From the NCBI GenBank assembly GCA_964556325.1, contig CAZKVS010000004.1:2439-66438 (forward strand): a stretch of DNA of 64,000 nucleotides. Direction: 5' to 3'. Shown in pieces: positions 1-61,751 of this stretch (position 1 is its first letter; each line of letters starts with the position of its first letter). A program made the position numbers and the translations under genes. Below the pieces are notes generated by a model, which worked only from the letters and a program-made list of their open reading frames with translations, did no database searches and was not told the DNA's origin. The DNA comes from an uncultured Candidatus Saccharibacteria bacterium. Its GTDB lineage: Bacteria > Patescibacteriota > Doudnabacteria > UBA920.

Positions 1-146
1 CCACTTCTTGAGAGTTAACTCTCGTTATTTCAACTTAAAGTACTTACAGTATACCATATAATTTATCCCTCAGAAAATAACACACTCTTGTATGCATTTG
101 CATACAAGAGTGTGTGTATAAAATATTCAAAATAACCACCGAAATT

Positions 147-560
147 TTATACTCCTCCAGTGACACCAACATTGCTGAAATAGTTTGCCACCACGTTAGC
201 TAGGAAGTAAGCCAAGATAATTATGACCAAACCGATGATAGCGTTTATGATTGTATTTTTTCCCTTGGTAGCCCGATCTTCATTACCAGCAGAGGTAATG
301 TACAAGAAACCGCCAAAGATGATAAACAATACATCGAGCGCTAACGTAATACTAAGAACCCAATTAATGACAGTGAGGATGAGCAAATTTACATCCTTTA
401 CGTCATTACAGTTCAAGCCATTCAGCTTATCACAAATACCCCCCTGTCCTCCTCCTGGCAAAGCCGAAGCTTGTGCAATAGCAGGACCAGCAACCAAAGC
501 GACTACTAACATAAACTGCAACACTGCGGTCCAGTTTATTTTTTTAACAATTTGTTTCAA
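147..560 (-). CDS. TrbC/VirB2-like type IV secretion pilin-family protein (signal peptide, TM1, '..ITSAGNE..KGK..' loop, TM2)
   Basis: 137 aa; N-terminal signal peptide, two C-terminal hydrophobic helices separated by TSAGNE-x5-KGK motif typical of T4SS_pilin/TrbC-like proteins common in CPR; first of four tandem paralogs. Confidence 0.65.
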   Translation of the reverse strand: MKQIVKKINWTAVLQFMLVVALVAGPAIAQASALPGGGQGGICDKLNGLNCNDVKDVNLLILTVINWVLSITLALDVLFIIFGGFLYITSAGNEDRATKGKNTIINAIIGLVIIILAYFLANVVANYFSNVGVTGGV

Positions 561-681
561 GTCTTATATACCTTTCACGTACCAAGAGCCACCTCTTAGT
601 GCGCCATTACATTACAGTTAGTATACCATACACTATCGAGGCAATAATGGCCATGGGGCTACACACACTTTTGAGTAATAC

Positions 682-1371
682 CTAAAACACACTCCCTGTT
701 GTAGCCAAGCGCACTACTACAGTAACAATTGCATAGGCAAACAAGACTAAGCCTAAACCAATAATTGCCCACTTGATTGTTTTCTTTCCACTTTCTGCTT
801 TTTTATCATCACCGCTTGAGGTCATGTACTGATAACCACCAATAACGATGAACAAAATAGCCAACGCGCCTGCCAACCCAAACCCAATTCTGGTTGCTCT
901 CTGAATTGCCTCACCCGGTGTATAACAATTCGCCGCTAAGGGTCCTGGAGTACCCCCTCCAAAATCTATAAAATTTTGTGACAACTGACCACACTCCGCA
1001 GCCGGCTGAGTGGTAGTGGTGGTTTGGTTTACGCATGGCCCTTGTTGACTTACGGTTGGCACCAGCGCATGCCAAGTTTCCGGCCCCACTGCACCCTCTG
1101 TACAATTTAAGGGAATACTTTGTTGAAACCTCTGAACGGCTACCCGCGTTGCTTCATCGAAGCTGGGGTTAGCGGCGTCCAAAGGAGGCGTGGCAAAGTT
1201 ACGCGTATTCATTTCCCATTTCACATATTGTACGCATTGATTACTGTCCCCAACTTTTATTTGTGGGTATCCGGCACAGGTATAGGGATTAGTCGCGGCA
1301 AATGCGGGAGCTGCTAACAAAAGACTTAATCCGAGAGTAGCCACTAATACTTTGCATTTATATATAAACAT
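682..1371 (-). CDS. T4SS pilin-like paralog with extended Cys-rich N-terminal ectodomain
   Basis: 229 aa; signal peptide, about 150-aa Cys-containing domain, then the same C-terminal module (..YQYMTSSGDDKKAESGKKTIKWAIIGLGLVLF..). Confidence 0.6.
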   Translation of the reverse strand: MFIYKCKVLVATLGLSLLLAAPAFAATNPYTCAGYPQIKVGDSNQCVQYVKWEMNTRNFATPPLDAANPSFDEATRVAVQRFQQSIPLNCTEGAVGPETWHALVPTVSQQGPCVNQTTTTTQPAAECGQLSQNFIDFGGGTPGPLAANCYTPGEAIQRATRIGFGLAGALAILFIVIGGYQYMTSSGDDKKAESGKKTIKWAIIGLGLVLFAYAIVTVVVRLATTGSVF

Positions 1372-1386
1372 GCCTTTATAAAACTC

Positions 1387-1791
1387 TTATTTTCTTCCAA
1401 TCAAACTCTGCACCATAGCAATGACAGAGAACGACATGAGAGCAACCACAAGACCAAGCACAGCCCACTGTATAGTTTGCTTTCCTGCCGTCACCGCTTT
1501 CTCATTACCGGCTGAAGTTACCATGCGCACCGCACCAATTATTATAAACAATACCGACAAGGAACCAACCATGATAAGCAAAAACCGAATAAGCGCAACT
1601 ATTAACTCGCCTAAACTGTTATAACTAATTGGGTTTACAATCTGCCCCTCAGTTACTACCGGAGCACTGGCGACTTGCGCGATAGCCGCATGAGGAAAAA
1701 ATACCCCCAACGCAGCTACTACAAACAAACTTGCAAAGGCTATCTGCTTTGTATATTTCATAAGCAAATTATTGTGGCTTAATAAGGTCAT
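1387..1791 (-). CDS. T4SS pilin-like paralog
   Basis: 134 aa; ..VRMVTSAGNEKAVTAGKQTIQWAVLGLVVAL.. motif plus signal peptide. Confidence 0.65.
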   Translation of the reverse strand: MTLLSHNNLLMKYTKQIAFASLFVVAALGVFFPHAAIAQVASAPVVTEGQIVNPISYNSLGELIVALIRFLLIMVGSLSVLFIIIGAVRMVTSAGNEKAVTAGKQTIQWAVLGLVVALMSFSVIAMVQSLIGRK

Positions 1792-2236
1792 TTGAATGGT
1801 TGTTAGGGTCAGTAAAGCTACCAGGGTCTTTCAGTATATTTCCGCCTTGGGAGTAGCCAACGACCACAAAGATAGTTTGTACCAACACGTAAGAAACGAG
1901 GATGACCGCAAGACCTATGAGAGAATTGGTCACCGCTTTTTTACCAGCGGCCTGCCCCGAAGGATTACCCGCCGAAGTAACCATTAAAAAGCCACCATAC
2001 ACCACTCCTCCGGTAGCCACTACGGCCGCACCAGAAAACAAGTATGTCACCAACCGTGCTGCGGTACTGAATAAATCTCCCAGTTTACAACCACTGGCAG
2101 CATCGCCGGTAGTCTCGTTGCCGCACGTCACTAAAGCTGCCTGTGCGTGCGGGGCTACCCGCAACAGCACCCCGCTCATAAGCGTGACGGCTACTGTAGA
2201 CAAAACAATGGCATACAAAAAGTGTCTCATAAGCAA
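1769..2236 (-). CDS. T4SS pilin-like paralog
   Basis: 155 aa; ..FLMVTSAGNPSGQAAGKKAVTNSLIGLAVIL.. motif; overlaps the previous ORF by about 20 nt, so the true start may be internal. Confidence 0.6.
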   Translation of the reverse strand: MLMRHFLYAIVLSTVAVTLMSGVLLRVAPHAQAALVTCGNETTGDAASGCKLGDLFSTAARLVTYLFSGAAVVATGGVVYGGFLMVTSAGNPSGQAAGKKAVTNSLIGLAVILVSYVLVQTIFVVVGYSQGGNILKDPGSFTDPNNHSNDLIKPQ

Positions 2237-2251
2237 TAGGTAAAAAATAAT

Positions 2252-3562
2252 TTAAGGACGCGGAATAGTAATTGCTCCAGCCTGACTTAATGCCTGGCCT
2301 AATGCTGTGCCGGCATCTATACCCCGAAGAGTCACATCGTCCAGCATTTTGGAAATAAGCGCGTCCACCTTTCTTTGATCAGGTCGATAAAAATTCTTCG
2401 CAGTTAAATTCGCATGAGCAAACACCCCAATATCTGGATCTTGTGTCTGCAATTCAATCAAGTCTTTACGACTCGAGGGTAACTTATGCGCAGCATAATA
2501 CTGATCAAGAGCCGCTTTGTCGCTAATAGTCTTCAAAAACTCCCAAGCACCATCCGTACTCTTACTCTGCTTGCTCACTACATAACCCCAATAATTAGCA
2601 AAATTAACTTCCGGATTATCTAAGTCCGGCTGGGGTACCGGAGCCACATCAAAGTTCAGGTTAGAAGCTTTTTGCTGGATAAGCTGACGTGCATACGAAT
2701 AGTCAATTATCATTGCAGCCCGGCCATTAGCAAACGCGTCTATAGAATAGTCGCTCTTGGTATTCCAGGTATAGTTGCGACTAACAGGATTTGAAAAGCC
2801 AGTATAAAAATTTATAGCATCAACTGCGGGCTGACTACTCACCCCGCTCGGGGCGGGTTGACCGAATAAAGGAGAACTTCCATCAGGCGACCAAGACTGT
2901 CCCCCTTTTTGCAATTGGAACAAATAAAACAGGTCTTCCGCTCGATGAATCTGACCTCCGGGAGCGGTACTAGAAAGACCCAGTGCTACCCCACTTCGAT
3001 TAAAATAGCCCAATTGACTCTGACGTGTGAGCTTCTGTGTATCTCGTTGTAGCTCATCCCAGGTTTTTGGGGGGGTTGCTATTCCAGCAGAACCTAAAAG
3101 GTCTTTATTATAGTACAAAGCTAAACTATCTACATAGTTTGCAGTACCGTATATCTTTCTGTCTCGCACAAAGTCATTCACCACTACATCCACAAAAGCA
3201 TTCTTGTAGTCTGTATAGTTCCATAAGGCCGCCGGAGCTGGCACAACCTTATCTAAATATTTCGGCAACCACGCATTATTAACTGTGAAAACGTCTGGAC
3301 CTTGGCCAGAGGCGAGCGCGTTTATCAAATCTTCTTCGTACGTCTCTACTGGTTTCACCACAAAAGAAACAGTGGAGCTTGGGTGCTTCTTCTGATAATA
3401 CGCCAATAAAGGCTGGAACTGGCTGCTATCCTCAAAGACTGACCACACCACCAGATTTACTGGCTTTGCACTTGGCGCGGCTCCACACCCTGAGAACACC
3501 AAAGCTATCAAAGCAAAGATGCTTATTTTTCCTAGCAAATTAGTTTTCAATTTTAATTTCAT
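2252..3562 (-). CDS. Extracellular solute-binding lipoprotein (ABC transporter family-1 SBP, sugar-type), orphan
   Basis: 436 aa; lipobox FSGC after signal peptide; SBP_bac_1-like composition; no permease or ATPase gene adjacent. Confidence 0.75.
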   Translation of the reverse strand: MKLKLKTNLLGKISIFALIALVFSGCGAAPSAKPVNLVVWSVFEDSSQFQPLLAYYQKKHPSSTVSFVVKPVETYEEDLINALASGQGPDVFTVNNAWLPKYLDKVVPAPAALWNYTDYKNAFVDVVVNDFVRDRKIYGTANYVDSLALYYNKDLLGSAGIATPPKTWDELQRDTQKLTRQSQLGYFNRSGVALGLSSTAPGGQIHRAEDLFYLFQLQKGGQSWSPDGSSPLFGQPAPSGVSSQPAVDAINFYTGFSNPVSRNYTWNTKSDYSIDAFANGRAAMIIDYSYARQLIQQKASNLNFDVAPVPQPDLDNPEVNFANYWGYVVSKQSKSTDGAWEFLKTISDKAALDQYYAAHKLPSSRKDLIELQTQDPDIGVFAHANLTAKNFYRPDQRKVDALISKMLDDVTLRGIDAGTALGQALSQAGAITIPRP

Positions 3563-3604
3563 ATACAGAGCAATTATGTACTAACAATAGTATAGCAAAA
3601 AATA

Positions 3605-3625
3605 CCCCCGACTCCGAGTCGGGGG
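3605..3625. terminator. Rho-independent terminator hairpin cccccgactccgagtcggggg (downstream of galU)
   Basis: Perfect 8-bp GC stem; the same CCCGACTCCGAGTCGGG core recurs (inverted) at 23768-23788. Confidence 0.6.
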
Positions 3626-3643
3626 TACAAATCAAGCAATTGT

Positions 3644-4543
3644 CTACAAAGCTAGACTTTTTATATATTCTCTGAGTTCGTCTCGTAAATCGTCATGTAG
3701 CAAACCAAACTCAATCACTGTTTTAAGATACTCTAACTTATTACCGCAATCATGATACTTGCCGTTCTTAATCTCTATTGCGTGCACCGCTTTACTTTGT
3801 TCCAATAAAATATTGATACCGTCTGTATAATAGAGCTCTTGTCCTGCTACTTTATTTTTTTCCATTCGATACATTGCCTCTTGTATAGCGCCAATCATTT
3901 CAGGGCCAAATAAGAAGCCAGAAACCACTGCAAAATCAGAATCAATAACCCCAGGGCCAGGCTTCTCCACCATGCGCTCAACCTGCATAACCCCCTCAGC
4001 CACGCTATGACCATCAACATAGCCGTATCGTTTATAATCATCAGGAGAACTTCGGCGCACACTACTTAGTACTGCGCTTCCACCATATTGCTCGTAAGCA
4101 GCGACTAGTTGTTGACATCGAGTCGGCGTAGCTGTAATAAAATCATCGGCCCATAAAAACAAAAATGGATCGTCACCAATAAAGCTGCGCGCGTTCCAGA
4201 TGGGTGTTCCATTACCATACGGCCCTTTCTGACGGATGTAGATAAAATTTGCCAAATTAGCAATGCGGCGAACTTCATCCGCCTGCTCGTGTTTACCTGC
4301 CTCTTCTAAACGCTTTTCTAACTCAAAAGGATAATCAAAGTGGTCTTCTATACTGCGCTTATGCCAGCCCGTCACTATGGCCACCTCTTCAATACCTGCC
4401 GACACTACATCTTCTACTACATATTGAATAATAGGCTTATCTACTAAAGGGAGCATCTCTTTAGGCATTGCCTTGGTTGCAGGTAAAAAGCGAGTACCAA
4501 ACCCCGCTGCCGCTATAACCGCTTTTCTTACTTTTTGAGCCAT
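3644..4543 (-). CDS. galU: UTP--glucose-1-phosphate uridylyltransferase
   Basis: KAVIAAAGFGTRFLPATKAMPKEMLPLVDKPIIQYVVE N-terminal signature of GalU. Confidence 0.85.
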   Translation of the reverse strand: MAQKVRKAVIAAAGFGTRFLPATKAMPKEMLPLVDKPIIQYVVEDVVSAGIEEVAIVTGWHKRSIEDHFDYPFELEKRLEEAGKHEQADEVRRIANLANFIYIRQKGPYGNGTPIWNARSFIGDDPFLFLWADDFITATPTRCQQLVAAYEQYGGSAVLSSVRRSSPDDYKRYGYVDGHSVAEGVMQVERMVEKPGPGVIDSDFAVVSGFLFGPEMIGAIQEAMYRMEKNKVAGQELYYTDGINILLEQSKAVHAIEIKNGKYHDCGNKLEYLKTVIEFGLLHDDLRDELREYIKSLAL

Positions 4544-4651
4544 ATAAAATAGTTAATTCTCATATATATGATGTACTATGCACGAAAGACTGTCAAAGCG
4601 CACAAAGCCCCCATATACTATATAATATTGACAAGTAACTAAATTCCACCA

Positions 4652-6127
4652 ATGAATCCACGGACGAAAAATATACTCCATTCGTTCCTTCACAACACGT
4701 ACCTTCACATATTTTTACTCACCCTTATTATCGCCTGCGCACAATGGTATAATCGAAATATTTTCGGAGACCCAGATGCGCAATACCACCTCACCGTTGC
4801 CAAACTGATGCCACTGTGGCCCACCTCAACCGAATTCTTCTGGCTTCCGTTCACCAGCTGGGGAAGTGCGTACGCAGACCAACACTACTTATTCCATCTA
4901 CTGCTCAAACCATTTGCTCTGCTTAATAGCGGGCAAACAGTTATACTATTTGGATTCCTGATAAACATTCTGGGTTTTAACTGGCTACTCAAACAAGTTA
5001 CCGGTACAAACCGAGTCCCCTGGCTTTGGCTCTACACGCTCGGATCCGCCGATTTACTTACCCGAGTAAGTCTCATAAAAGCGGAAGCAACCGGTATGGT
5101 GTTCCTATATTTACTTACCGGGTTACTTATCAAACGAAAATGGTCATGGCTTTTACCCGTTATGACCCTCTATACGCTTTGGTACGGGGGGAGTACAGTT
5201 TTCTTGGTCATACTGGCTGCATACTGTGCAGTAGAATTTTTTCGCACAAGGACCATTTTACTTAAACCCATATATTGGACCCTTGGCGGACTCTTACTAG
5301 GACTCTTACTAGGTCCCTACAGGGCAACCCTCCCCGCGCTCTTGTATGACCAAATAACTCGGGCCGGCCTGCTCAGAGAAATACCAGGAGGAAATGAATG
5401 GTATAGCCAGCCCGCGGCGTTCCTACCGGACAATATTCTTGTCTTCTTGCCCTGGATAGCAAGCTTGTTTTTTCTTATAAAAGAAAAAAAATATGCAACT
5501 CGAACTCTCTGGTTTATATCTCTCAGCAGTTGCACGCTCTTTCTTCTCGCGCTTTACTCAAACCGCATAACACTCTATTGGATTCCGTACGGACTTCTAC
5601 TGACGGCTTCCATGCTTCCTCACCCCGTGGAGCAAGCATGGAAAAAATTATATACATCCACCGACCAAAAACTCAGAAAAATACTTATAGTAGCGTTATT
5701 AATCTTCGCTTGCCTGCGAGGAGTACAGAATTTTTTCAACATAACCTCAACCATTCATCGAATTGGCCTACCAATCGCCCGACTACGGAATGCGGCAAAC
5801 TGGCTCAATACCCACACACAACCCGGTGATGTCATTACCAATGTGTCATGGCATATATTCCCCGAGCTTTTCTACTGGAACACAAAAAACAGATACATCG
5901 CTGGCGAAGACCCTGCTTTTCTTTGGATTGCCGACTCTTCTCGATACACCATATGGAGCCAATTGGAGACACCTCTTTCACCCCAGGAGCTAGCAACGAG
6001 TATGACTGCATTCAATAGCAGCTGGCTTATTGCACCAAAAAGCCTTTACCAAAATTTACCCAAAAATTCCTATGTAGAGCAGGTGTATGAAGACAATGCT
6101 GTCCATATTATCCACCTAATCAAATAA
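4652..6127 (+). CDS. Polytopic integral membrane protein (possibly GT-C/ArnT/PMT-like glycosyltransferase)
   Basis: 491 aa, more than 10 predicted TM helices, aromatic-rich; function not certain. Confidence 0.55.
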   Translation: MNPRTKNILHSFLHNTYLHIFLLTLIIACAQWYNRNIFGDPDAQYHLTVAKLMPLWPTSTEFFWLPFTSWGSAYADQHYLFHLLLKPFALLNSGQTVILFGFLINILGFNWLLKQVTGTNRVPWLWLYTLGSADLLTRVSLIKAEATGMVFLYLLTGLLIKRKWSWLLPVMTLYTLWYGGSTVFLVILAAYCAVEFFRTRTILLKPIYWTLGGLLLGLLLGPYRATLPALLYDQITRAGLLREIPGGNEWYSQPAAFLPDNILVFLPWIASLFFLIKEKKYATRTLWFISLSSCTLFLLALYSNRITLYWIPYGLLLTASMLPHPVEQAWKKLYTSTDQKLRKILIVALLIFACLRGVQNFFNITSTIHRIGLPIARLRNAANWLNTHTQPGDVITNVSWHIFPELFYWNTKNRYIAGEDPAFLWIADSSRYTIWSQLETPLSPQELATSMTAFNSSWLIAPKSLYQNLPKNSYVEQVYEDNAVHIIHLIK

Positions 6128-6130
6128 AGC

Positions 6131-7639
6131 CTAAGAAGTTTTAGGCCTATATTGAATACTCTCAGCCAAATGCTCTGAGTTTATATGTTCAAATCCGGAT
6201 AAATCCGCTATTGTCCGCGCAACTTTCAAAATTCTATGAATACTTCTACCAGAAAGTGCATATTTATCAGCTGCGGCAGAAAGTAAACTACTTTCAGTTT
6301 GGCCCAAAGCACAATACGTGCGTATTTCAACTACATTCATGTCGCTGTTGCTTTTGGCCTCACCGAGCCGTTGTGCTTGTACTCTACGAGCAGCAGATAC
6401 TCGAGCCGCAACCTGCTCAGACCGTTCGGAGCGAGTCACGGTATTTAATTTTTCATAAGACAAGCGAGGCACATTAATATGTATATCAATTCTATCCAAT
6501 AATGGGCCAGAAAGTTTCTTTTGATAATTATACACTTGCGTTGGTGTACACATACATCGCTTATCACCATCTCCAAAGTAACCGCAGGGGCAAGGGTTTT
6601 GAGCAGCTACAAGCATAAATTTAGCCGGAAACGTAAAGGTGTTTTTCGAACGAGAAACTGTAACAACACCGTCTTCAAGCGGCTGCCGCAAGGCTTCTAA
6701 TACATTGCGAGGGAACTCAGGGAGCTCATCTAAAAACAAAACACCTCTGTGCGCCAAGCTAATTTCTCCCGGCCGAGGGACACTGCCTCCTCCAACCAAC
6801 GCAACACTCGATGTGGTGTGATGAGGACTTCGTACGGGACGAGTCGTAACTACTCCCTTTGGGGGCAGCTGTCCCGCAATACTATATATCCTGGTCAGAT
6901 CCAAACACTCCAGCAAAGAAAGTGGAGGAAGTATTCCCGCCATTGCCCGGGCCAATAAAGTCTTGCCCGAACCAGGAGGACCTGACATAAGCACATTATG
7001 ACCACCACTTGAGGCAATTTCCAAAGCTCGTTTAGCCATTTCCTGGCCTGCTATGTCCGCAAGATCAAGACCTCCCGAAGCCACCTGTAAAAATGATTCT
7101 ACGGATACGGTGGGAACGGGCTGCATAAGACGCGTACCAAGTACGTGCAATAAAACTTGTTCGAGGTTTTGACACGCAAAGACGGCAACACCATTCACGA
7201 GCGCCGCCTCAGATGCGTTTGATTCCGGAACAAAGAGAGCCTTAACTCCCATACTTGCTGCTTTCAACGCGATGGGCAATATCCCAGAAACTGGACGAAC
7301 TGCCCCGTTTAATGCGAGCTCGCCTACAAACCACGAATCCTCCAAGGATAATACATACTGCTCCGAAGCTCCTACTATTGCAAGAGCAATTGGCAAATCA
7401 AACAAGGTCCCAATTTTCGGAGTATCAGCAGGAGCGAGATTAACAGATACTCTCGTTTGAGGATACTTGCACCCACTGTTCTTTAAGGCACTCCGCACCC
7501 TTTCTTTACTTTCTTGCACGGCTGCATCGGGCAATCCAACTATAATCGTAGCCGGTAGGCCGTTCGCAACATCAGCCTCTACCGTAATTGGCGCTGCTTC
7601 TAATCCCACTATTGTTGCAGTTGTTATATGGGCAACCAT
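6131..7639 (-). CDS. comM: YifB/ComM family Mg-chelatase-like AAA+ ATPase
   Basis: N-terminal ChlI/ComM domain (TIVGLEA..VEADV..GLP), Walker A GPPGSGKT, C-terminal Mg_chelatase_C. Confidence 0.85.
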   Translation of the reverse strand: MVAHITTATIVGLEAAPITVEADVANGLPATIIVGLPDAAVQESKERVRSALKNSGCKYPQTRVSVNLAPADTPKIGTLFDLPIALAIVGASEQYVLSLEDSWFVGELALNGAVRPVSGILPIALKAASMGVKALFVPESNASEAALVNGVAVFACQNLEQVLLHVLGTRLMQPVPTVSVESFLQVASGGLDLADIAGQEMAKRALEIASSGGHNVLMSGPPGSGKTLLARAMAGILPPLSLLECLDLTRIYSIAGQLPPKGVVTTRPVRSPHHTTSSVALVGGGSVPRPGEISLAHRGVLFLDELPEFPRNVLEALRQPLEDGVVTVSRSKNTFTFPAKFMLVAAQNPCPCGYFGDGDKRCMCTPTQVYNYQKKLSGPLLDRIDIHINVPRLSYEKLNTVTRSERSEQVAARVSAARRVQAQRLGEAKSNSDMNVVEIRTYCALGQTESSLLSAAADKYALSGRSIHRILKVARTIADLSGFEHINSEHLAESIQYRPKTS

Positions 7640-54527: not shown

Positions 54528-54938
54528 TTGTATAATGGTTGTATGCAAAAAAGGCAATTCAAAATTACCATATTCACAGGCACTCTCACGCTCTCACTCG
54601 TAGCGTGCATTGCCTTGTCTCAAATTCAGCCAGCTCTGCAAGCCTTTACGGAAACCTACTCAGTACCAACCGGTATAGTTGCGGGCATTGCTGTAGGAGG
54701 AACCATTGAGCCAACACCCACCAATACGCTCTACGCTGAATTACAGCAGCAACAGATTGCGTTGGATAAAAAAAATGCAGAACTCGAAGCTGAACGTAGA
54801 TATTTAGAACAAAGTAAAACTACAAAAAACACTATTCTCTATATACTCATAATTCTGCTCGGTATATTGGTTGTGGTTAATTTTTATTTTGATATTAAAC
54901 GATACCGCTCCAGTTTTAAGCAAGAACTGCACACATGA
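54528..54938 (+). CDS. Bitopic membrane protein with coiled coil (hypothetical), first gene of the surface island
   Basis: N-terminal signal-anchor, coiled coil (LYAELQQQQIALDKKNAELEAERRYLEQ), C-terminal TM. Confidence 0.45.
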   Translation: MYNGCMQKRQFKITIFTGTLTLSLVACIALSQIQPALQAFTETYSVPTGIVAGIAVGGTIEPTPTNTLYAELQQQQIALDKKNAELEAERRYLEQSKTTKNTILYILIILLGILVVVNFYFDIKRYRSSFKQELHT

Positions 54939-56446
54939 GGTCTATAACAAGTGTATTAGTATTGTTTCTACTTTTCTGCGTAGCAACAACAGCTCTAGCG
55001 GGAACACTAACCAATCGAAGTGACACGTTAGGAACGTCCGCTATTGGTGTCGAGTCAAGCCACCGAATTACCTTTAAACCAAGTTCAACCATTCCTAGTT
55101 CGGGCACTATAACTATAACTCCAACTCCGAGCTTATTTAGTGTTCACCCCCGACTCGACTATCGTGATGTAGACATTCTCGTAAATGGAGTAGAACAACA
55201 CACCGCCCCTACTCCGGGCTCTGGAAATGGAAGCGCCCTTGGCGTCGTAGCCACCGGAGGAAGCAATGGCAGCATTGTCCTCACACTCAACGACACAGAC
55301 ACCATAATCTCTGGTAGTACGGTAGACATTCTCGTTGGTTCTATTGCCGTCTACGAAGCAGCTGGCCTTTTTGGTATTACCAACCCTAACACAATTGGTA
55401 GCTATCCTATTACCATAGAGACGGCCACGGCCTCCAATACACCCCTCGATACAAGCGTTATCGGAGTAGTAACCACAATCCCCGTAGGAATAACTGGCAC
55501 GTTTAATGGCAATGTTGTGGCCAATCCCACCTTTAGCCCGAACCCCGGCACATATGCAAACAGTATTGCAGTAACCCTGTCTACGACCACCCCTGGAGCC
55601 ACGTTGTATTACACAACCGATGGTAGCACTCCGACCGCAGGAAGCGCAGTATACTCCGGCGCGCTTACTATAAACCAAAGTACTGTAATACAAGCCCTTG
55701 CAACCGCCCCAGGTTACGCAGATAGCGCCGTAAGTAGTGCCACGTACATTATCACCACCACTGGCGGTAGTGGCGGAGGCGGAGGCGGAGGCAGCGGCCC
55801 CGTTGTTATCCCCCCCTTCACCCCACAAGCTGGGGAAACTATTATAGACGGCGGGGTTGGAGGACTCGCCTATGGGGGTTGTAGTAATGGAAGCACTATT
55901 ACTCTCACCATACCAGCCGGAGCTTGGAATGGCGCAGGATATGTTGCCCTCTCCTGTCTCCCCTATAGCACTTTTGAGAATAAAAATGGCGCTGCAAGTG
56001 GCGATGCTATAGCAGATACTATATTTGGAATATCGGTTACGGACAGCAATCACAGGCCTATTTATACAAGCCAGTCTCCCATAGCAGCTGTAATCACATA
56101 TACCCAGGGACAGTATCTCGGATTTTCAGACCCTTTCACCACCCAACAATTCAACAACTCTCGCTGGAACGAGCTTACATATATTCAAAATCAAAATACT
56201 CCCACGGTATTCAGTGCAGCCTTTACTACTATTGGTTCACTTGCCGTAATCGGATCGGCCAAAAACCAAAACTGTTCAGACAGAAAAGCGGATTTAAATT
56301 GCGATATGCATGTAGACTTAGTCGACTTTAGCATTCTCCTCTATTGGTGGAACAGTAAACAATCGGGTATACGAGCAGATATTAACAAAGATGGTATAGT
56401 AAATTTAATTGACTTTAGCATTCTCCTCTATTGGTGGACAGGCTAA
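54935..56446 (+). CDS. Secreted dockerin-containing protein (CHB_HEX_C-like Ig domain, Gly-rich linker, C-terminal type-I dockerin)
   Basis: Signal peptide; FSPNPGTYANSIAVTLSTTTPGATLYYTTDGSTP (chitobiase/hexosaminidase C-terminal-like); GGSGGGGGGGSG linker; two dockerin Ca-binding repeats ADLNCDMHVDLVDFSILLYWW / ADINKDGIVNLIDFSILLYWW. Confidence 0.75.
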   Translation: MRSITSVLVLFLLFCVATTALAGTLTNRSDTLGTSAIGVESSHRITFKPSSTIPSSGTITITPTPSLFSVHPRLDYRDVDILVNGVEQHTAPTPGSGNGSALGVVATGGSNGSIVLTLNDTDTIISGSTVDILVGSIAVYEAAGLFGITNPNTIGSYPITIETATASNTPLDTSVIGVVTTIPVGITGTFNGNVVANPTFSPNPGTYANSIAVTLSTTTPGATLYYTTDGSTPTAGSAVYSGALTINQSTVIQALATAPGYADSAVSSATYIITTTGGSGGGGGGGSGPVVIPPFTPQAGETIIDGGVGGLAYGGCSNGSTITLTIPAGAWNGAGYVALSCLPYSTFENKNGAASGDAIADTIFGISVTDSNHRPIYTSQSPIAAVITYTQGQYLGFSDPFTTQQFNNSRWNELTYIQNQNTPTVFSAAFTTIGSLAVIGSAKNQNCSDRKADLNCDMHVDLVDFSILLYWWNSKQSGIRADINKDGIVNLIDFSILLYWWTG

Positions 56447-56455
56447 GCCCTACAC

Positions 56456-57410
56456 TATGCGTATACGAACTATTTCAATCAGCATACTTGTGGCGAGTGG
56501 CATCGCACTAGTAAGCCCGACGCACGGAGCCCGTGCCGCAAATACAGACTTGCATATCTCCGGACCAAAAAGCGTAGCCCTAGGCCAAACTTTTTCTGTT
56601 CGACTCATCATGAGCAGTGCCAGCTCAATTAATGCAATGAGCGGAAACGTGCAATATTCTGGCGAGCTCTTAGGCGTTCAAGGAGTCAGCTACAATAGGT
56701 CCATATTCAAACTCTGGCAACAAACTCCTAATAACAGCCCCCAAACAAACCAGGTAGTATTTGCAGGCGGACTCCCCAACCCAGGCTTTAGTGGTGAAAA
56801 CGGAGAAATTATTCAAATAACCTTTAAAGCTCGAGCGCTCGGCACTGCGACGGTGCAGCTACTCAACAACTCACAGGTGCTTCTCAACGATGGACAAGGG
56901 AGCAGAGCAGAATGGTCAGCTACTCCCTACACGGTTCAAATAAACAAACCAGAAACAGAGCCTACTCCACCACCCGCCGAGCCCTCCCCAGTCGCGAAAG
57001 ACACGACACCACCCACCAATCTTGAACTCTTGATTGGCCACGATAGCCATTTATTTGAAGGTAATTGGTTTGCAGTATTTCGCGCTGAAGACTTGGAAAG
57101 CGGCATAGATCATTACGAACTGGCCGAGGTAGACAATAGCCAAACCTATCCTGTCGACACCGACTGGAGAAAAGTAACCAGTCCATACCAACTCTTAAAG
57201 CAGGAGCAAGGCACTAAAGTATTCTTAAAAGCTGTTGATAAGTCAGGCAACATAAGTACAATCAGCAGAGAGCATAAGCCCACACTCATATCCTTCCCTA
57301 GACCAGACTGGCGTCTCTTGCTCATATTAGCGGTCATACTTGCTCTAGGACTTATCCTGCCTATCTTTGTCTACCATAGAAAAAAACTAGAGGCCTCTGT
57401 ACAAAAGTAG
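56456..57410 (+). CDS. Membrane-anchored cohesin-like domain protein
   Basis: Signal peptide; cohesin-like beta-sandwich signature (GQTFSVRLIM.S...NAMSGNVQYSGELLGVQGV......NQVVFAGG...SGENGEIIQITFKARALGTATVQL); Pro/Thr linker; second beta domain; C-terminal TM + HRKK stop-transfer. Confidence 0.55.
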
Positions 57411-57474
57411 TTTTTTCTGCTACAATATATTTAAACCTGACTCAACTCAAGAAATAAAGATTAAATAAAAAAGC

Positions 57475-58605
57475 ATGAAGTTCCTCCAGAGGGTAAGAAA
57501 AGTTAGTTACAGAAATCTTATAAGCAAATTTGTTATTGGCACCTTAGTACTCAGTGGTATTCTCATTGCCCCACACCATGCCGATGCTGCTCAGGTCACT
57601 TCATTTTCTGACACGTTGACCAGGCTTAAGGCAAGCACCAACGCTAACCACGAAATATTTTTTGTGTCCCCAACAGGCATAGCCTCAACCGGCAACATGA
57701 CGCTTACCTTTACTGGTTTCTCTAACGCAACTGTGAACGCCATACTTTTTAGCGATGTTGACTTTGCTACTGGCAGCACCGCTGTTTGTACAAGCGCTGT
57801 TTACACTGAGCAAACTCTGGTTGCCTCTGGCGCCACCTCTGCCCAATGGAATGTGGCCACCGCCAGCCAAGTTATGACCATTACTTCCGGAGGTGCTTCA
57901 GCCACATTGACGGCTAACAAATGTGTTCGCATACGTATTGGAACCAACGCGACCAACCAAACAACTGGTGTAAACCAAATCCAAAACAATACGGCCGGCA
58001 CAGCTACTATCGCTGTCGGTGGTGGATTTGGAGACACTGGCACTATCGCTATACCTATTATCTCAAACGACCAGGTTACCATAAGCGCTACTGTAGACCC
58101 AACTATAACATTCTCTATTTCGCAAACCACAGTAAGCTTTGGCTCCCTTTCTGCTGCCACTGGTCGCTGGGCCACAAACGCCGGTGGCGCAAACGCCTCC
58201 GCAGCCACCGACCCTACAGCAGCCAACACCGCACATACCCTGACTGTTGGGACCAATGCAAGCAGTGGGTATACAGTCACATATAACGGCGCCCTTCTCA
58301 CAAGCGGCGCAAACACTATAGCAGCTGCTACTATCACTGGGGACAGCGATGGAACTGTAAACTCCAACCAATTTGCACTCTGCGGAAAAGGCACTTCTGG
58401 TAGCCCAACAGTTGCCTCTGGATATGTTTGTGGTACCAACAGCGACTATAACTTTGTAGCCGGCACAACAACAACGCTCGCGAGCGCAACTGCCCCCGCC
58501 AGCAGCGATGTGGTAAGCGTCGCCTATCTTGCCAACATTGCCAGCTCAAAACCGGCTGGTACATACACAACCACCCTCACTTACGTTGCCACGGGAAACT
58601 TTTAA
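57475..58605 (+). CDS. Thr/Ala/Gly-rich secreted surface protein with WxL-like C-terminal motif (AGTYTTTLTYVATGNF)
   Basis: Signal peptide (..IAPHHADA); beta-rich low-complexity; C-terminal AG-Y-x3-TLT(W/Y) resembles the WxL domain second motif of Firmicutes WxL proteins. Confidence 0.55.
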   Translation: MKFLQRVRKVSYRNLISKFVIGTLVLSGILIAPHHADAAQVTSFSDTLTRLKASTNANHEIFFVSPTGIASTGNMTLTFTGFSNATVNAILFSDVDFATGSTAVCTSAVYTEQTLVASGATSAQWNVATASQVMTITSGGASATLTANKCVRIRIGTNATNQTTGVNQIQNNTAGTATIAVGGGFGDTGTIAIPIISNDQVTISATVDPTITFSISQTTVSFGSLSAATGRWATNAGGANASAATDPTAANTAHTLTVGTNASSGYTVTYNGALLTSGANTIAAATITGDSDGTVNSNQFALCGKGTSGSPTVASGYVCGTNSDYNFVAGTTTTLASATAPASSDVVSVAYLANIASSKPAGTYTTTLTYVATGNF

Positions 58606-58620
58606 CCACTTTTAATAACC

Positions 58621-59625
58621 GTGTCAAAAACACACTCATTTTATAAAATTTTTACTATCAGCAGCCTTTTGCTGATAGTTTTTATTACACTCCCCAGCAC
58701 CGCTACTGCAACTACCATGTCACCGGTGCGCCTAGAACTCACAGCAAACCCGGGTGAAACTGTACAAACATCGGTCAAAGTCATAAACGAAACCCAAAAC
58801 TCTCAGGTACTGTACACAGCAACGCTAAACTTCGAACCAAAAGGAGATGAAAGCGGAGAGCCCAACTTTATATCCACCAAAGACGGACTCGCTGCATGGA
58901 CCAAAGCACCGAACTCCATTACACTAGGCCCAAAAGAACAAAAAACTATACCAGTCAGCATACAAATCCCCGCCGACACCGAACCAGGGGGGTACTTTGG
59001 TGCAGTATTTACCTCCAGCACCCCACCCAAAGAGAACGGGAGTGGAAGTGTAATGTTAACGGAACGCGTAGGCAGTCTTATATTGCTACGGGTCAATGGC
59101 GACCTAGCCGATTCCGGGGATATTCTTGAATTTAACACCAAAGACAAGTCCTACTGGCACACCTATTTGCCGATTAATTTATTCTACCGCTTTCAAAATA
59201 GCGGCCTAGACCGTGTCAGACCCCTGGGGGATGTGCTTATAAAAAACTGGTTTGGTAGAACTACCAAAATATTTGAAGCAAACCCAGAAGGCGGCAACGT
59301 ACTGCCAAAGAGTATTCGTCGGTTTAATATCAGCTGGAATAATGCTGATACGCAGGACGATCCAGCAGCGCTGAGCGGTTTCTGGAGCAAAGTACGTTAC
59401 CAAATACAGCACTTCGCCCTTGGCCCTTACACAATTCAGCTCAACTTAGCCTACGGGACAGGCTCATTGCACGCCGCAACTGCATCGGTAAAAGTTTTTA
59501 TGTTCCCCTGGCAGCTTGTGTTGGTAAGCACCATTAGCATTCTGCTGGCGTTCTTTATATCCCGTTTCTGTATTCGTCGTTACAACCGCTGGATAATAGG
59601 CAAAGCATCCAAAGCAAAAAGATAG
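58621..59625 (+). CDS. DUF916/DUF3324-like cell-surface protein with C-terminal TM anchor
   Basis: MSPVRLELTANPGETVQTSVKVINETQNS...EPGGYFGAVF resembles DUF916 N-terminus of WxL-locus (csc-type) proteins; C-terminal TM (LVLVSTISILLAFFI) + RRYNR. Confidence 0.55.
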   Translation: MSKTHSFYKIFTISSLLLIVFITLPSTATATTMSPVRLELTANPGETVQTSVKVINETQNSQVLYTATLNFEPKGDESGEPNFISTKDGLAAWTKAPNSITLGPKEQKTIPVSIQIPADTEPGGYFGAVFTSSTPPKENGSGSVMLTERVGSLILLRVNGDLADSGDILEFNTKDKSYWHTYLPINLFYRFQNSGLDRVRPLGDVLIKNWFGRTTKIFEANPEGGNVLPKSIRRFNISWNNADTQDDPAALSGFWSKVRYQIQHFALGPYTIQLNLAYGTGSLHAATASVKVFMFPWQLVLVSTISILLAFFISRFCIRRYNRWIIGKASKAKR

Positions 59626-59648
59626 ACCTTCTCACATATACCCCACAA

Positions 59649-59676
59649 TCAACGTGGGGTATTTTTTACATCCATG
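59649..59676 (+). terminator. Terminator accccac-aatcaac-gtggggt + T tract
   Basis: After 58621..59625. Confidence 0.55.
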
Positions 59677-59690
59677 ATAAAATTAACTAT

Positions 59691-60788
59691 ATGCGAAGCT
59701 TGAAGAAATTATTTTTATACATAAGTGTAGCGCTTGTAAGCGTCCTACCTTTTCCCACTCTTGCGGAAACGCTTTCGAGTTCAAATTATTCCGTAGAAAA
59801 TCCCTCTGTGGACGTGGGCGGCCAGCTCTCCAACTCAACCAACTATACTTCCCGCGACTCTATCGGAGGCAGCAACGACTCAGCCGCCACTTCTACAAAC
59901 TACAAAATATTCCCTGGGTTTATGCAGCACGCCTACCCTGGCGTCCCCGCTCAACCAACGCTTACAAACACCGGTGGCGTGCTCTATAACGCATTAGATT
60001 TTATTATGGCCACAGGAGCAGGCCAACAAACAGATACTGTCTATGCTATAGCTATTTCCAGCGACAGCTTTACCACTACTAACTTTATACAGGCAGACGA
60101 CACCGTAGGTAGCACTGCCGTATGGCAAAGCTATATTTCCTGGGGTTCAGGCACGGGACAACGCGTAACTGGCTTAGTTCCCAACACAACCTATCAAATA
60201 AAAGTAAAAGCCCGCTATGCAGCAGACACTGAGACCGCTTATTCTCTAACTGCAAGCGCAACAACAGGCGGCCCCACACTCACCGTATCATTCAGTGGAG
60301 TAAACTCGGGCACAGTTGTCGCCGGAGCCACAACGACAGTAACCAGCGCGGCCAACTCCATAACCTATGGATCGCTCACACCGAGCGTGACCGCTGTTGC
60401 AGCCCAGACAATTACCGTAAGCACCAATGCCACAGGCGGTTATACCACCACACTGCAACAAGACGGCAATCTTCGAAACAATAACGGCGATGCTATTAGC
60501 GCCACCACCGGATCCAACGCTTCCCCTGCGGCTTGGCCAACCGGCATTACCGCGGGCTATTTTGGCTATCATACAACCGATAGCAGCCTCTGCACTGGTA
60601 CCACCAGCCGTTTTTCCAGTAACAATACCTACGCTGCCGCAACTACGACACCTGCTGAAATTGCCTGCTCAACAACTACGGCAGCCAACGAGCAAACTTC
60701 TATCGTATACAAAGTCGAGGTGGGCACCTTACAAGATGCGGGAACCTACCAAAATATAATTACCTATATTACTACAGCTCAGTTCTAA
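59691..60788 (+). CDS. Thr/Ala-rich secreted surface protein, paralog with WxL-like C-terminus (AGTYQNIITYITTAQF)
   Basis: Signal peptide (..FPTLA); same architecture and C-terminal motif as 57475..58605. Confidence 0.55.
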   Translation: MRSLKKLFLYISVALVSVLPFPTLAETLSSSNYSVENPSVDVGGQLSNSTNYTSRDSIGGSNDSAATSTNYKIFPGFMQHAYPGVPAQPTLTNTGGVLYNALDFIMATGAGQQTDTVYAIAISSDSFTTTNFIQADDTVGSTAVWQSYISWGSGTGQRVTGLVPNTTYQIKVKARYAADTETAYSLTASATTGGPTLTVSFSGVNSGTVVAGATTTVTSAANSITYGSLTPSVTAVAAQTITVSTNATGGYTTTLQQDGNLRNNNGDAISATTGSNASPAAWPTGITAGYFGYHTTDSSLCTGTTSRFSSNNTYAAATTTPAEIACSTTTAANEQTSIVYKVEVGTLQDAGTYQNIITYITTAQF

Positions 60789-60791
60789 AAT

Positions 60792-61751
60792 ATGCGCATT
60801 CATCGCCTACAACACATTCTAGCGCTTGGATTCTTGGTTATGGCCCTCTTGGGCCTTGCCCACAAAAAAACTAATGCCCAGGAGCAAGAATTAATCGTGC
60901 AAGGCGTCCGAGTTTCGCCGTTTATCTTTGAACAAAGCTTAGAAAAAGGTCATTCTTTTAAAGGCGAAGTTACGCTCAGCAACACGACCAACTCCCCTAT
61001 AACCTTAGCCCTGGCAATACAAGATTTTATTCCCGCGGGAAGACATGGAGAGGTGCGTTTTTTACCTACCAACGAGCAGTCAGATGTTCACTTTTCACTC
61101 ACCGATTGGGTACAAATCACAACTCAGCCGAACTACACTCTCGCTCCTGGAGCTACCACCAAAACCGGCTTTACGGTAACAGCGCCTGTGGACGCCGACG
61201 ACAGCACACACTACGGAGGAATTGTGTTTTCGTTCAATAATGGTAAAACAGAAAATGGAACGGCAGTCATTCAAAGCGTGGGCGCCCTCCTCATTGTAAA
61301 AATTGGCCACTCAAATGGCCAAGGCACTATCCAAAGCTTTACCACCCCAAAACACCTCTATACAAACAGCTACGTCCCCTTCACTGTAGATTTTAATAAT
61401 ACGGGCAATACCCACTTGAGCCCAAAAGGTAAAATTGAAATATACAATGCTTTCAAAAAGCTTGTAGGCGTGGCATATATAAACAAAGATGCTCAAATTA
61501 GCCTCCCAAACACCGTCCGACAATTTGACAGCGACTACCAAGGCGGCTTTATGCTGGGTAAATACACAGCCAGCTTAACTATGTATTTCGGCAACCCCAA
61601 GCTAGAAGCTCGAAGCGTAGTGCAGTTTTGGGTCATACCGTGGAAGCCAATAATTAAAGCAATAAGCCTGACCATTCTCTGTGTTGCACTGCTCACTCTG
61701 GCTATTATCCGCTATAATACTTGGGTCATTAAAAAAGCTCGAAAAAAATGA
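60792..61751 (+). CDS. DUF916/DUF3324-like cell-surface protein, TM-anchored (paralog)
   Basis: VRVSPFIFEQSLEKGHSFKGEVTLSNTTNSPITLALAIQDF...HYGGIVFSF; C-terminal TM (ISLTILCVALLTLAII) + RYNTW. Confidence 0.5.
   Translation: MRIHRLQHILALGFLVMALLGLAHKKTNAQEQELIVQGVRVSPFIFEQSLEKGHSFKGEVTLSNTTNSPITLALAIQDFIPAGRHGEVRFLPTNEQSDVHFSLTDWVQITTQPNYTLAPGATTKTGFTVTAPVDADDSTHYGGIVFSFNNGKTENGTAVIQSVGALLIVKIGHSNGQGTIQSFTTPKHLYTNSYVPFTVDFNNTGNTHLSPKGKIEIYNAFKKLVGVAYINKDAQISLPNTVRQFDSDYQGGFMLGKYTASLTMYFGNPKLEARSVVQFWVIPWKPIIKAISLTILCVALLTLAIIRYNTWVIKKARKK

Follow-up and report, generated by a model that had tools for sequence, protein, structure and literature searches.

In the ultra-small Patescibacteria, 441 arrays of VirB2-like pilin genes have been described, each consisting of 2-11 genes whose products share a mean identity of 25% (Quinonero-Coronel et al. 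2025, PMC12102498). One such pilin series belongs to the T4SS cluster SEML1_0006-0019 of Southlakia epibionticum ML1, where it is essential (Wang et al. 2023, PMC10633639; PMC12857230), and a 2025 review states that pili have so far not been observed on the cells of any member of the group (PMC12857230). PrgF_B2 of Enterococcus faecalis pCF10 is likewise an essential VirB2-like protein; its loop cysteines are chemically accessible from the outside, and modelling arranges it into a pilus that sits on a pentamer of VirB6 (ter Beek et al. 2025, bioRxiv 10.64898/2025.12.18.695078). The locus analysed here is a further example of the published Patescibacteria pilin arrays, with some additional details, and not a new kind of system. 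It resembles these arrays, including that of S. epibionticum, in its tandem chromosomal PF18895 genes, which have about 25% mutual identity and a conserved structure, and its full complement of about six genes compares with six pilins reported for S. epibionticum. Unlike the published arrays, it lies neither in nor beside a T4SS cluster but between the gene of a solute-binding protein (SBP) and, judging from relatives, those of FtsH, RNase III and SMC; in addition, one member carries a PG_binding_1-like domain, and the adjoining SBP is a lipoprotein. We consider it probable that the genes described below are the first four of a PF18895 array encoding a T4SS-assembled, mixed-subunit, pilus-like structure, in which the subunits have distinct roles.

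In architecture, the encoded proteins also resemble PrgF_B2 and other Gram-positive VirB2-like proteins: small two-TM proteins with a short charged cytoplasmic loop, in a bacterium with a single membrane. For PrgF_B2, stacking on the VirB6 pentamer has been proposed, with the loop lining the lumen. However, PrgF is encoded by one gene per system, located beside virB6 and without cleaved, ectodomain-bearing variants, whereas the array described here comprises four to seven paralogues, which carry signal peptides and additional domains.

The stretch of DNA analysed, referred to as the window, is 64 kb long and contains, as the original prediction stated, four neighbouring pilin-family genes on the minus strand between positions 147 and 2236. 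In order of the array these are pil4 (1769..2236), identified by ORF, Pfam match and topology; pil3 (1387..1791), whose product is free of cysteines; pil2 (682..1371), encoding 229 aa with an N-terminal PG_binding_1-like ectodomain followed by the pilin module (aa 154-219); and pil1 (147..560), the last array gene within the window, with a TTG start and 137 aa. Public gene calls on identical or near-identical contigs place the probable start of pil4 at the ATG at 2230, giving 153 aa. For pil3, calls on some public contigs point to the ATG at 1761, giving 124 aa, and on others the protein is called as 134 or 147 aa. The pil1 product has a Cys43/Cys51 pair, and that of pil4 has a Cys36/Cys48 pair and continues for about 30 aa past TM2. 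An HMM built from the four modules recovered only pil1-pil4 in a six-frame scan of the window (E 1e-29 to 1e-37; next match E 0.25), so the four-gene module family is not a product of chance; the 112 bits that pil3 scores against this HMM are circular, pil3 being among its source modules. Plus-strand ORFs over the array genes (223-621, 1902-2243 and others) were treated as shadow ORFs. A look-up of the exact pil1 protein returned no record, a tblastn search of plasmids with pil1 gave no match, and a tblastn search of phages with pil2 gave a single weak, unannotated match (E 0.1).

Assignment to the T4SS pilin family held up in the HMM search. All four proteins match PF18895 (T4SS_pilin), with 47.2 bits for pil1, 56.5 for pil2, 26.2 for pil3 and 33.5 for pil4; relative to the gathering score of 26.6 bits, pil3 falls 0.4 bit short and the other three pass. 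Despite this sub-threshold score, the pil3 module is 94% identical to its orthologue inside an array of the same type in the syntenic genome locus L005. PF18895 further matches all 51 homologues in our alignment (A3). Against NF045849, the family of Mbov_0395, pil2 scores 44.4 bits, above the cut-off of 40, while pil1, pil3 and pil4 reach 30.0, 17.7 and 16.2 bits; we found no literature on the function of this family. Its members Mbov_0395 and MMCAP2_0565 stem from Mycoplasma ICEs, whose hosts likewise have a single membrane, but they are single genes on mobile elements, whereas here several genes make up an array on the chromosome, in a housekeeping context.

The predicted topology, a signal peptide followed by two TM segments, was also borne out for all four proteins. 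Hydropathy reveals three hydrophobic segments in each: an N-terminal signal-like segment with an AxA site, TM1 and TM2. The AxA sites, in signal peptides judged by simple rules, are AQA31 before S, AFA25 before A, AIA28 before Q and AQA31 before A. TM1 and TM2 are joined by a short, net-positive loop with the motifs ITSAGNE, MTSSGDD, VTSAGNE and VTSAGNP; an invariant G-K comes after the motif in all four, which gives the consensus TS(A/S)G(N/D)...GK. AlphaFold models pil1 as a helical hairpin (H51-88/H94-134, pLDDT 84-92), and the corresponding hairpin of pil2 spans H152-183/H189-225. What did not survive was the description of the C-terminal module as identical among the four: any two modules are only 24-34% identical, any two full-length proteins 22-32%, and just eight columns are invariant. 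In arrangement and in their mutual identity of 22-34%, the four adjacent genes agree with the published definition of an array, which asks for at least two genes found by pilin HMMs, in tandem or with one non-pilin gene in between, of low mutual identity and in a Patescibacteria genome that encodes VirB4 as well (PMC12102498).

The label 'TrbC/VirB2-like' was not upheld at the sequence level. The plan is the same as in Agrobacterium VirB2/TrbC (PF04956), namely two hydrophobic helices with a basic loop, preceded by a long signal peptide, but sequence homology could not be demonstrated, neither virB1 nor virB3 is adjacent, and the bacterium has a single membrane. PF04956 scores only 16.5 bits for pil1 and 19.5 for pil2, compared to a gathering score of 27.9, and does not match pil3 or pil4; it reaches E<=0.01 in only 5 of the 51 homologues, comparable to spurious Cytochrom_C_asm matches. 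When A3 was compared by hhalign with five annotated VirB2/TrbC proteins of Ti, Ri and pSym plasmids, the probability was 0.3, the narrow VirB2 alignment limiting sensitivity, and a profile search of PDB sequences found nothing. Homology to classical VirB2 was thus tested and not demonstrated by sequence. In Foldseek, the sole pilus-type fold match was the Aeropyrum pernix conjugation pilus (8dfu), with a target-normalised TM-score of 0.62-0.66 that is not significant. Non-significant pilus matches are to be expected for a plain helical hairpin.

Could these then be unrelated small secreted or membrane proteins that match PF18895 through hydrophobic composition and have no link to a T4SS? The same proteins do give spurious Pfam matches to TM proteins at E 1e-4 to 1e-5, and neither fold nor sequence ties them significantly to solved pilins. 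Yet PF18895 scores of up to 56 bits and the match of every homologue argue against this explanation, as do the conserved TSxGN...GK loop motif, which goes beyond hydrophobicity, and the homologous modules that adjoin VirB4 and VirB6-like genes in other Patescibacteria. We regard it as highly improbable.

The count of four is an effect of the window edge. The syntenic locus L005 contains seven pilin genes, followed by FtsH, RNase III and SMC, and the syntenic locus L003 contains six. Window positions 67-1 align with 89.6% identity to the spacer 5' of the fifth pilin gene of L005; therefore, the array is cut at the window edge, and by this alignment a fifth gene should start about 19 nt past position 1. 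This gene is predicted to be pil1-like, with two longer pilin genes (products of about 265 aa) and ftsH expected after it. Independent assemblies from several samples break at window position 538, and 32 nt at this point match the start of gene 5 of L005 exactly, and the contigs with pil2 or close homologues are short, all ending at or near the pil1 start. L005 has two genes of the pil1 type, with modules 98% and 86% identical to that of pil1; this type is thus duplicated in L005, and probably here. The nearest genomes carry the name Candidatus Doudnabacteria or Patescibacteria, in agreement with the predicted CPR membership. In this Doudnabacteria-like Patescibacteria genome, the full array, its part beyond the window extrapolated from the more distant L005 and L003, would be a conserved chromosomal set of six or seven genes of the PF18895 family. 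A deep conservation of six types across all Patescibacteria was considered and rejected, as the assignment of types is clear only within the close clade.

In the 121-nt spacer before pil1 lies a promoter-like element, TATGGTATACT (620..630, minus strand), a putative promoter of pil1, and 3' of pil1 there is an intrinsic-terminator-like hairpin (80..115, minus strand) with a 16-17 bp stem and a T-run (dG -30.7 kcal/mol, z -6.1). Downstream of this hairpin, a second copy of the same 11-mer (48..58, minus strand) would serve the presumed fifth pilin gene beyond the window edge. On the other side, the array is adjoined by the gene of the solute-binding lipoprotein (2252..3562, minus strand), which is SBP_bac_1, MalE/CUT1-like (Pfam 117.8 bits) with the lipobox FSGC; its NCBIfam matches are all below threshold. 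The stop of this gene lies 21 nt before the pil4 start, so the two probably form one transcription unit, the upstream limit of which is marked by a terminator-like hairpin (3602..3628, minus strand) between the SBP gene and an NTP_transferase-family (GalU-like) gene. Over the whole window, Rfam identified tRNAs only.

The original prediction that VirB4, VirB6 and VirD4 are missing from the window proved right. No T4SS ATPase or channel genes were found within the 64 kb, nor within 10 kb of the array in syntenic relatives, and co-location with virB3/virB4/virB6 was seen in neither. A search with a Patescibacteria VirB4 returned, among the best 120 matches listed, only other lineages at an identity of at least 75%; the related Doudnabacteria MAG was not among the matches listed. 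Among the other Patescibacteria loci that were fetched, 17 have VirB4 no more than 10 kb away from pilin genes. The DNA uptake role that had been suggested finds no backing in the literature on the one tested species, where competence is attributed to type IV pili together with ComEC instead of the T4SS (PMC10633639, PMC12857230).

The separation of the array from VirB4 in this clade, in a housekeeping context, makes it conceivable that the hairpins are membrane-resident subunits, which form or line a channel or platform and are never extruded, possibly serving uptake together with the adjacent SBP. The lack of any pilus observed in Patescibacteria would fit such an arrangement, as would the fact that SBP homologues adjoin pilin arrays in 20 of 56 related genome loci, a link without mention in the T4SS literature searched for it. 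Public proteins, moreover, fuse 2-8 pilin modules in a single chain after one signal peptide, and such chains of up to 8 modules (16 TM helices) resemble polytopic membrane proteins. However, the pilin family occurs inside T4SS clusters of other lineages (see also PMC12102498), the architecture is that of every characterised VirB2-like protein, and large external domains such as the PG-binding one suit a displayed subunit better than a channel wall, which leaves permanent residence in the membrane unlikely.

What do the differences between the tandem copies mean? Arrays of several tandem divergent virB2-type genes are likewise known from Bartonella and Anaplasma (cited in PMC12102498), where they are thought to be antigenically variable, and the original prediction suggested antigenic or functional variation of a surface filament here. 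On this reading, the copies would be a diversifying repertoire for antigenic or host-range variation. Several observations point in this direction. The exposed N-terminal parts are the most divergent between paralogues; ectodomains are gained or lost at one array position among relatives, with 229 aa for pil2 and 142 aa, without ectodomain, for the L005 orthologue at the same position; one type has been duplicated; dS is very unequal between adjacent genes, suggesting inter-strain recombination; and adaptation to different host strains has been suggested for such arrays (PMC12102498). The orthologues tell otherwise. Module identity is 24-34% between paralogues but 57-98% between genes of the same type in other genomes, and the modules of seven genomes group according to type, irrespective of the genome they come from, with gene order kept in the closest genomes and the first two positions swapped in others. 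Because paralogue identity is far beyond saturation, dN/dS was computed on orthologues, yielding 0.03-0.18, and 0.03-0.06 for pil4, whose module is 95% identical to that of L005. In amino acid identity to L005, pil4 (88%) and pil3 (81%) are conserved at least as well as the ComM-like (80%) and GalU-like (77%) genes. Neither DNA repeats or invertible elements linking the array genes nor silent cassettes or an invertible promoter were found, and every array gene carries a full-length signal peptide. By these comparisons, the set of paralogues is old and fixed, with distinct types that evolve under purifying selection and are each conserved, in contrast to what is thought of Bartonella and Anaplasma; this argues against antigenic variation, which we consider distinctly unlikely.

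In pil2, the predicted Cys-rich ectodomain of 150 aa does exist and has six cysteines, but it measures about 130 aa (aa 26-155) and is PG_binding_1-like. Across 19 homologues, five of the six cysteines are invariant, C90 being variable. The GPETW/DGxxGPKTW motif is conserved. The PG_binding_1 (PF01471) score of pil2 is 22.4 bits, compared to a cut-off of 23, and PF01471 occurs together with PF18895 in 13 of 24 homologue clusters. The top Foldseek matches of the ectodomain model are PG-binding domains, namely those of SleC (9h68; E 6e-3, rmsd 2.6 over 78 columns), 1lbu, LdtA and SltB2. From profile and model alike, the ectodomain is PG_binding_1-like and a putative peptidoglycan-binding domain. 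Related arrays contain further long pilins, for whose ectodomains Pfam gives no match, and the study describing the 441 arrays brings up peptidoglycan only with regard to VirB1 (PMC12102498).

In the mixed-subunit, pilus-like structure that we favour, each precursor would be exported by Sec and cleaved after the AxA site. The mature pilin would be a helical hairpin in the membrane, its two ends exposed on the outer side and its loop facing the cytoplasm; that both hairpin ends lie on the same side is indicated by the multi-module fusions, since these are workable with a single signal peptide only in this way. The fusions also speak for an assembly of the modules with one another. Analogy with VirB2, TraA and PrgF_B2 suggests that a T4SS whose VirB4, VirB6 and VirB3-like parts would be encoded at another locus lifts the hairpins from the membrane and places them on a VirB6 platform, where they would stack into a tube and turn their loops to the lumen. 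The outside would then be formed by the variable N-termini, among them the putative peptidoglycan-binding domain in pil2 and the Cys-bridged loops in pil1 and pil4. As the types are old, fixed and under purifying selection, the paralogues most likely have different structural roles in one assembly, with short 'shaft' types and ectodomain-bearing 'accessory' types, and the peptidoglycan-binding subunit would anchor the structure to a cell wall, be it the cell's own or that of the host.

Finally, only a few systems have been proven indispensable to Patescibacteria as epibionts; the T4SS with its pilin series belongs to these, and the present locus leaves that picture unchanged. What it adds is that the conservation of the pilin types favours a mixed-subunit assembly over antigenic variants, that the peptidoglycan-binding subunit suggests contact with a cell wall, and that the recurrent solute-binding lipoprotein partner may hint at what the pilin structure handles. 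Taken further, about six fixed pilin types, one of them peptidoglycan-binding, and a tethered sugar-type SBP could be a conserved module that has moved off the T4SS ATPase genes in several non-Saccharimonadia lineages of Patescibacteria, building a wall-engaging, mixed-subunit conduit or scaffold that captures host glycans or nutrients instead of secreting DNA or protein. We put this forward as speculation, and an unlikely one; if it were true, the natural fusions of 2-8 modules would be covalent versions of the same mixed assembly.

Four consecutive minus-strand genes lie between positions 147 and 2236, confirming with corrections the pilin array of the original prediction: pil1 (147-560, 137 aa), pil2 (682-1371, 229 aa), pil3 (1387-1791, 134 aa) and pil4 (1769-2236, 155 aa). 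In public annotations of identical or near-identical contigs, pil3 begins at ATG 1761 (124 aa) and pil4 at ATG 2230 (153 aa); with these later starts the apparent pil3/pil4 overlap disappears, leaving ordinary signal-peptide N-termini. Each protein has three hydrophobic segments: a signal-like segment closed by an AxA site (AQA31/S, AFA25/A, AIA28/Q and AQA31/A in the four proteins, the slash marking the predicted cut), then TM1 and TM2. The short loop between TM1 and TM2 starts with (I/M/V)TS(A/S)G(N/D), contains an invariant G-K and carries a net charge of +1 to +2 by hand count of charged residues. To call this C-terminal module 'identical', as had been done, is too strong, since the paralogues are 24-34% identical in it and share only eight invariant columns. 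A six-frame scan of the 64 kb with an HMM derived from these modules matched the four alone.

All four proteins are members of the Pfam family PF18895 (T4SS_pilin), with 47.2 (pil1), 56.5 (pil2), 26.2 (pil3) and 33.5 bits (pil4) at a gathering score of 26.6, and PF18895 also matches 51 of 51 collected homologues. In addition, pil2 passes the cut-off of NCBIfam NF045849, the Mbov_0395 pilin-like conjugal transfer protein of Mycoplasma ICEs. The family named at the outset was right, but its proposed homology to VirB2 is unproven by sequence. PF04956 (TrbC/VirB2) scores 16.5 and 19.5 bits, below its threshold of 27.9, and reaches E<=0.01 in only 5 of the 51 homologues, as do unrelated transmembrane families such as Cytochrom_C_asm. 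Profile comparison with five annotated VirB2/TrbC proteins (Ti, Ri, pSym and Acetobacter plasmids) was negative, and a profile search of PDB sequences gave no match. AlphaFold predicts confident helical hairpins (pLDDT 84-92 for the pil1 core, ~70-77 for the pil2 hairpin). The sole pilus matched by Foldseek was the Aeropyrum pernix conjugation pilus 8dfu (target-normalised TM-score 0.62-0.66, E 2.3-3.5), a plain helical hairpin having little discriminating power in fold searches. That these proteins may work like VirB2 is an analogy from architecture and literature.

Do the paralogues diversify as antigenic variants? A neighbour-joining tree covering the window's modules and those of six related genomes groups them by type and not by genome: identity is 57-98% between a window pilin and its counterparts in other genomes, but only 24-34% between neighbours in the window. 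Gene order in the array is retained in the closest genomes, and the first two positions are swapped in some others; type-wise orthology weakens outside the close clade. Comparison of orthologues with strains at 89-97% nucleotide identity gives a dN/dS of 0.03-0.06 (pil4) and of 0.05-0.18 (pil3 and pil2 alike). Relative to L005, a syntenic 111 kb ENA contig with ~70% nucleotide identity to the window, conservation of pil4 (88% amino acid identity) and pil3 (81%) equals or exceeds that of the neighbouring ComM-like (80%) and GalU-like (77%) genes. The array genes have neither DNA repeats in common nor silent cassettes or invertible elements. Antigenic variation, one of the roles first suggested for the tandem copies, does not fit this pattern; paralogues that are old and constrained, with distinct complementary roles, do. 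In one strain pair (window 682-7639 versus L010/L011), dS differs widely between adjacent genes (pil4 0.09, SBP 0.15, pil2 0.86, GalU-like 1.35), which suggests a mosaic from recombination between strains.

The comparison with L005 also indicates that the window edge cuts the array. Both share the upstream order RNase T-like exonuclease, signal peptidase II, ComM-like ATPase, 496-aa membrane protein, GalU-like NTP transferase and SBP, after which L005 carries seven PF18895 genes (153, 124, 142, 139, 135, 269 and 263 aa), one pilin type being duplicated, and then FtsH, RNase III, SMC and S16. The more distant L003 (GCA_964490395.1) has six PF18895 genes followed by the same downstream genes. 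Window positions 67-1 are 89.6% identical to the spacer directly 5' of L005 gene 5, which would place the start of a fifth pilin gene ~19 nt past position 1. A strong terminator hairpin (115-80, minus strand; dG -30.7 kcal/mol, z -6.1) follows pil1, and beyond it the promoter-like 11-nt element TATGGTATACT lies at 58-48 (minus strand), occurring again 5' of pil1 at 630-620. Fourteen nucleotides of the pil1 terminator (105-118) are repeated at 660-673, just 3' of the pil2 stop codon. Together, these repeats suggest that the duplicated unit included its own flanking signals. Five independent assemblies drawn from several samples (L001, L008, L009, L011 and L012; 88-100% identical to the window) share a contig end at window position 538, 22 nt into pil1, and two more contigs end at 447 (L002) and 451 (L010). 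A 32-nt stretch (567-536) exactly matches the start of L005 gene 5. A pil1-like duplicate as fifth gene, sharing this 5' end, would explain the breaks at 538, with short-read assembly probably failing at the repeat.

The Cys-rich ectodomain noted for pil2 (residues 26 to ~155) has six cysteines, five of which are conserved without exception in 19 homologues, and appears to contain a peptidoglycan-binding-like fold. Four lines of evidence support this assignment: a Pfam PG_binding_1 score of 22.4 bits for pil2 itself (cut-off 23); the annotation of PF01471 on 13 of 24 homologue clusters; a conserved GPETW motif, DGxxGPKTW in some homologues; and a structural model whose best PDB matches are peptidoglycan-binding domains, namely those of SleC (9h68; E 6e-3, rmsd 2.6 over 78 columns), the Zn DD-peptidase 1lbu, LdtA and SltB2. 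The orthologue at the equivalent position in L005 (10001-10429) has 142 aa and no such domain. A pil3-type gene in L003 encodes 283 aa versus 124 aa. At a fixed array position, ectodomains come and go while the module remains orthologous. An exhaustive search of 1.84 billion representatives returned 17,338 proteins at E<=1e-3; among the best 150, fewer than 10 by hand count have alignments that span the peptidoglycan-binding part as well as the module, so this fusion is uncommon.

Fusions between modules were frequent in the same search, with at least two modules in 114 of the best 150 representatives. Public proteins (P0201, P0202, P0204, P0206 and others) carry 2-8 tandem modules behind a single signal peptide, with eight in P0201 and exactly six in five proteins, and stop-free multi-module ORFs occur in related loci such as L063 (8160-9419) and L026 (9110-10183). 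They resemble the gene arrays in covalently joined form, and support a same-side topology and the co-assembly of different modules.

The array sits in a chromosomal, housekeeping-rich setting that includes matches to RecA, FtsK with a gamma domain, a Mg-chelatase/ComM-type ATPase, signal peptidase II, Hsp20, gyrase A, a class A PBP, IF-2 and a tyrosyl-tRNA synthetase-like protein, plus 12 tRNAs; the nearest genomes are Candidatus Doudnabacteria MAGs and auto-labelled 'uncultured Candidatus Saccharibacteria'. As anticipated, VirB4, VirB6 and VirD4 were not found: no large ORF of the window has such a domain, and a Patescibacteria VirB4 query (phmmer) gave no match there even at E 10. In 17 other loci the same query locates VirB4 no more than 10 kb from pilin genes. 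Across L021-L026, L034, L003 and L013-L018, FtsH and SMC lie 3' of the pilin array in most and a ComM-like ATPase 5' in several, recognised by ORF length and Walker A position and Pfam-confirmed only in L003 and L005. These recurrent flanks point to a conserved housekeeping neighbourhood in the clade rather than a T4SS cluster. At 54528-62722 (plus strand), the window also carries a gene run for probable surface proteins with CHB_HEX_C/Fn3_assoc, cohesin-like and WxLIP_PGBD-like domains, several of its ORFs lacking a Pfam match.

Directly 5' of pil4 lies the SBP gene (2252-3562, minus strand). Its product is a MalE/CUT1-type sugar-binding lipoprotein (SBP_bac_1) that carries the lipobox FSGC. 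The gene stops 21 nt short of pil4, and a terminator lies upstream of SBP. Homologues lie directly next to co-oriented pilin arrays in 20 of 56 genome loci, a sample biased by its selection with pil2-derived patterns, and in 19 of 40 arrays with at least three modules (hand count). SBP abuts the array in L005, L016, L021-L028, L031, L034, L042, L046-L048, L051, L059-L061 and L063, with lineage titles of Doudnabacteria, Moraniibacteriota, Parcubacteria group and Andersenbacteria; L042 and L051 combine SBP, array and VirB4, and Saccharimonadales-type arrays lack SBP. Most abutting SBPs have a lipobox, some an apparent N-terminal hydrophobic anchor. No ABC permease gene occurs among the window ORFs scanned, and the two T4SS papers searched are silent on an SBP.

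Using PF18895 and PF04956, Quinonero-Coronel et al. (2025; PMC12102498) described 441 arrays of 2-11 pilin genes with a mean identity of 25% in 383 Patescibacteria assemblies; only 1135 of 1948 assemblies had pilin genes near virB4, and the paper mentions peptidoglycan only with VirB1. By Tn-seq, Wang et al. (2023) found the T4SS and a series of pilin genes essential in Southlakia epibionticum, whose T4SS cluster has no recognisable relaxase or coupling proteins (PMC10633639). In light of these arrays and this essentiality, the window array is a further example of a described phenomenon. Of the original interpretation, family and context hold, and the DNA uptake idea is not supported.

How might the hairpins assemble? 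The six S. epibionticum pilins are structurally conserved and sequence-divergent, and a pilus there is still only a possibility (2025 review; PMC12857230). The main rival reading, which is less likely, is that the hairpins never leave the membrane and form a channel or platform there. In a December 2025 preprint, the charged cytoplasmic loop of PrgF_B2, an essential VirB2-like protein of pCF10, becomes accessible from outside, and the model of the protein is a tube seated on a VirB6 pentamer (10.64898/2025.12.18.695078). In the filament that we consider most likely, the precursors would be exported by Sec and cleaved after AxA, giving membrane hairpins whose two termini face outwards and whose positive loop is cytoplasmic. 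A T4SS encoded elsewhere would extract these hairpins and stack them helically, the loop lining the lumen and the variable N-terminal parts lying on the surface. Short pilin types would then form the shaft, and long types may serve as accessory or wall-anchoring subunits.
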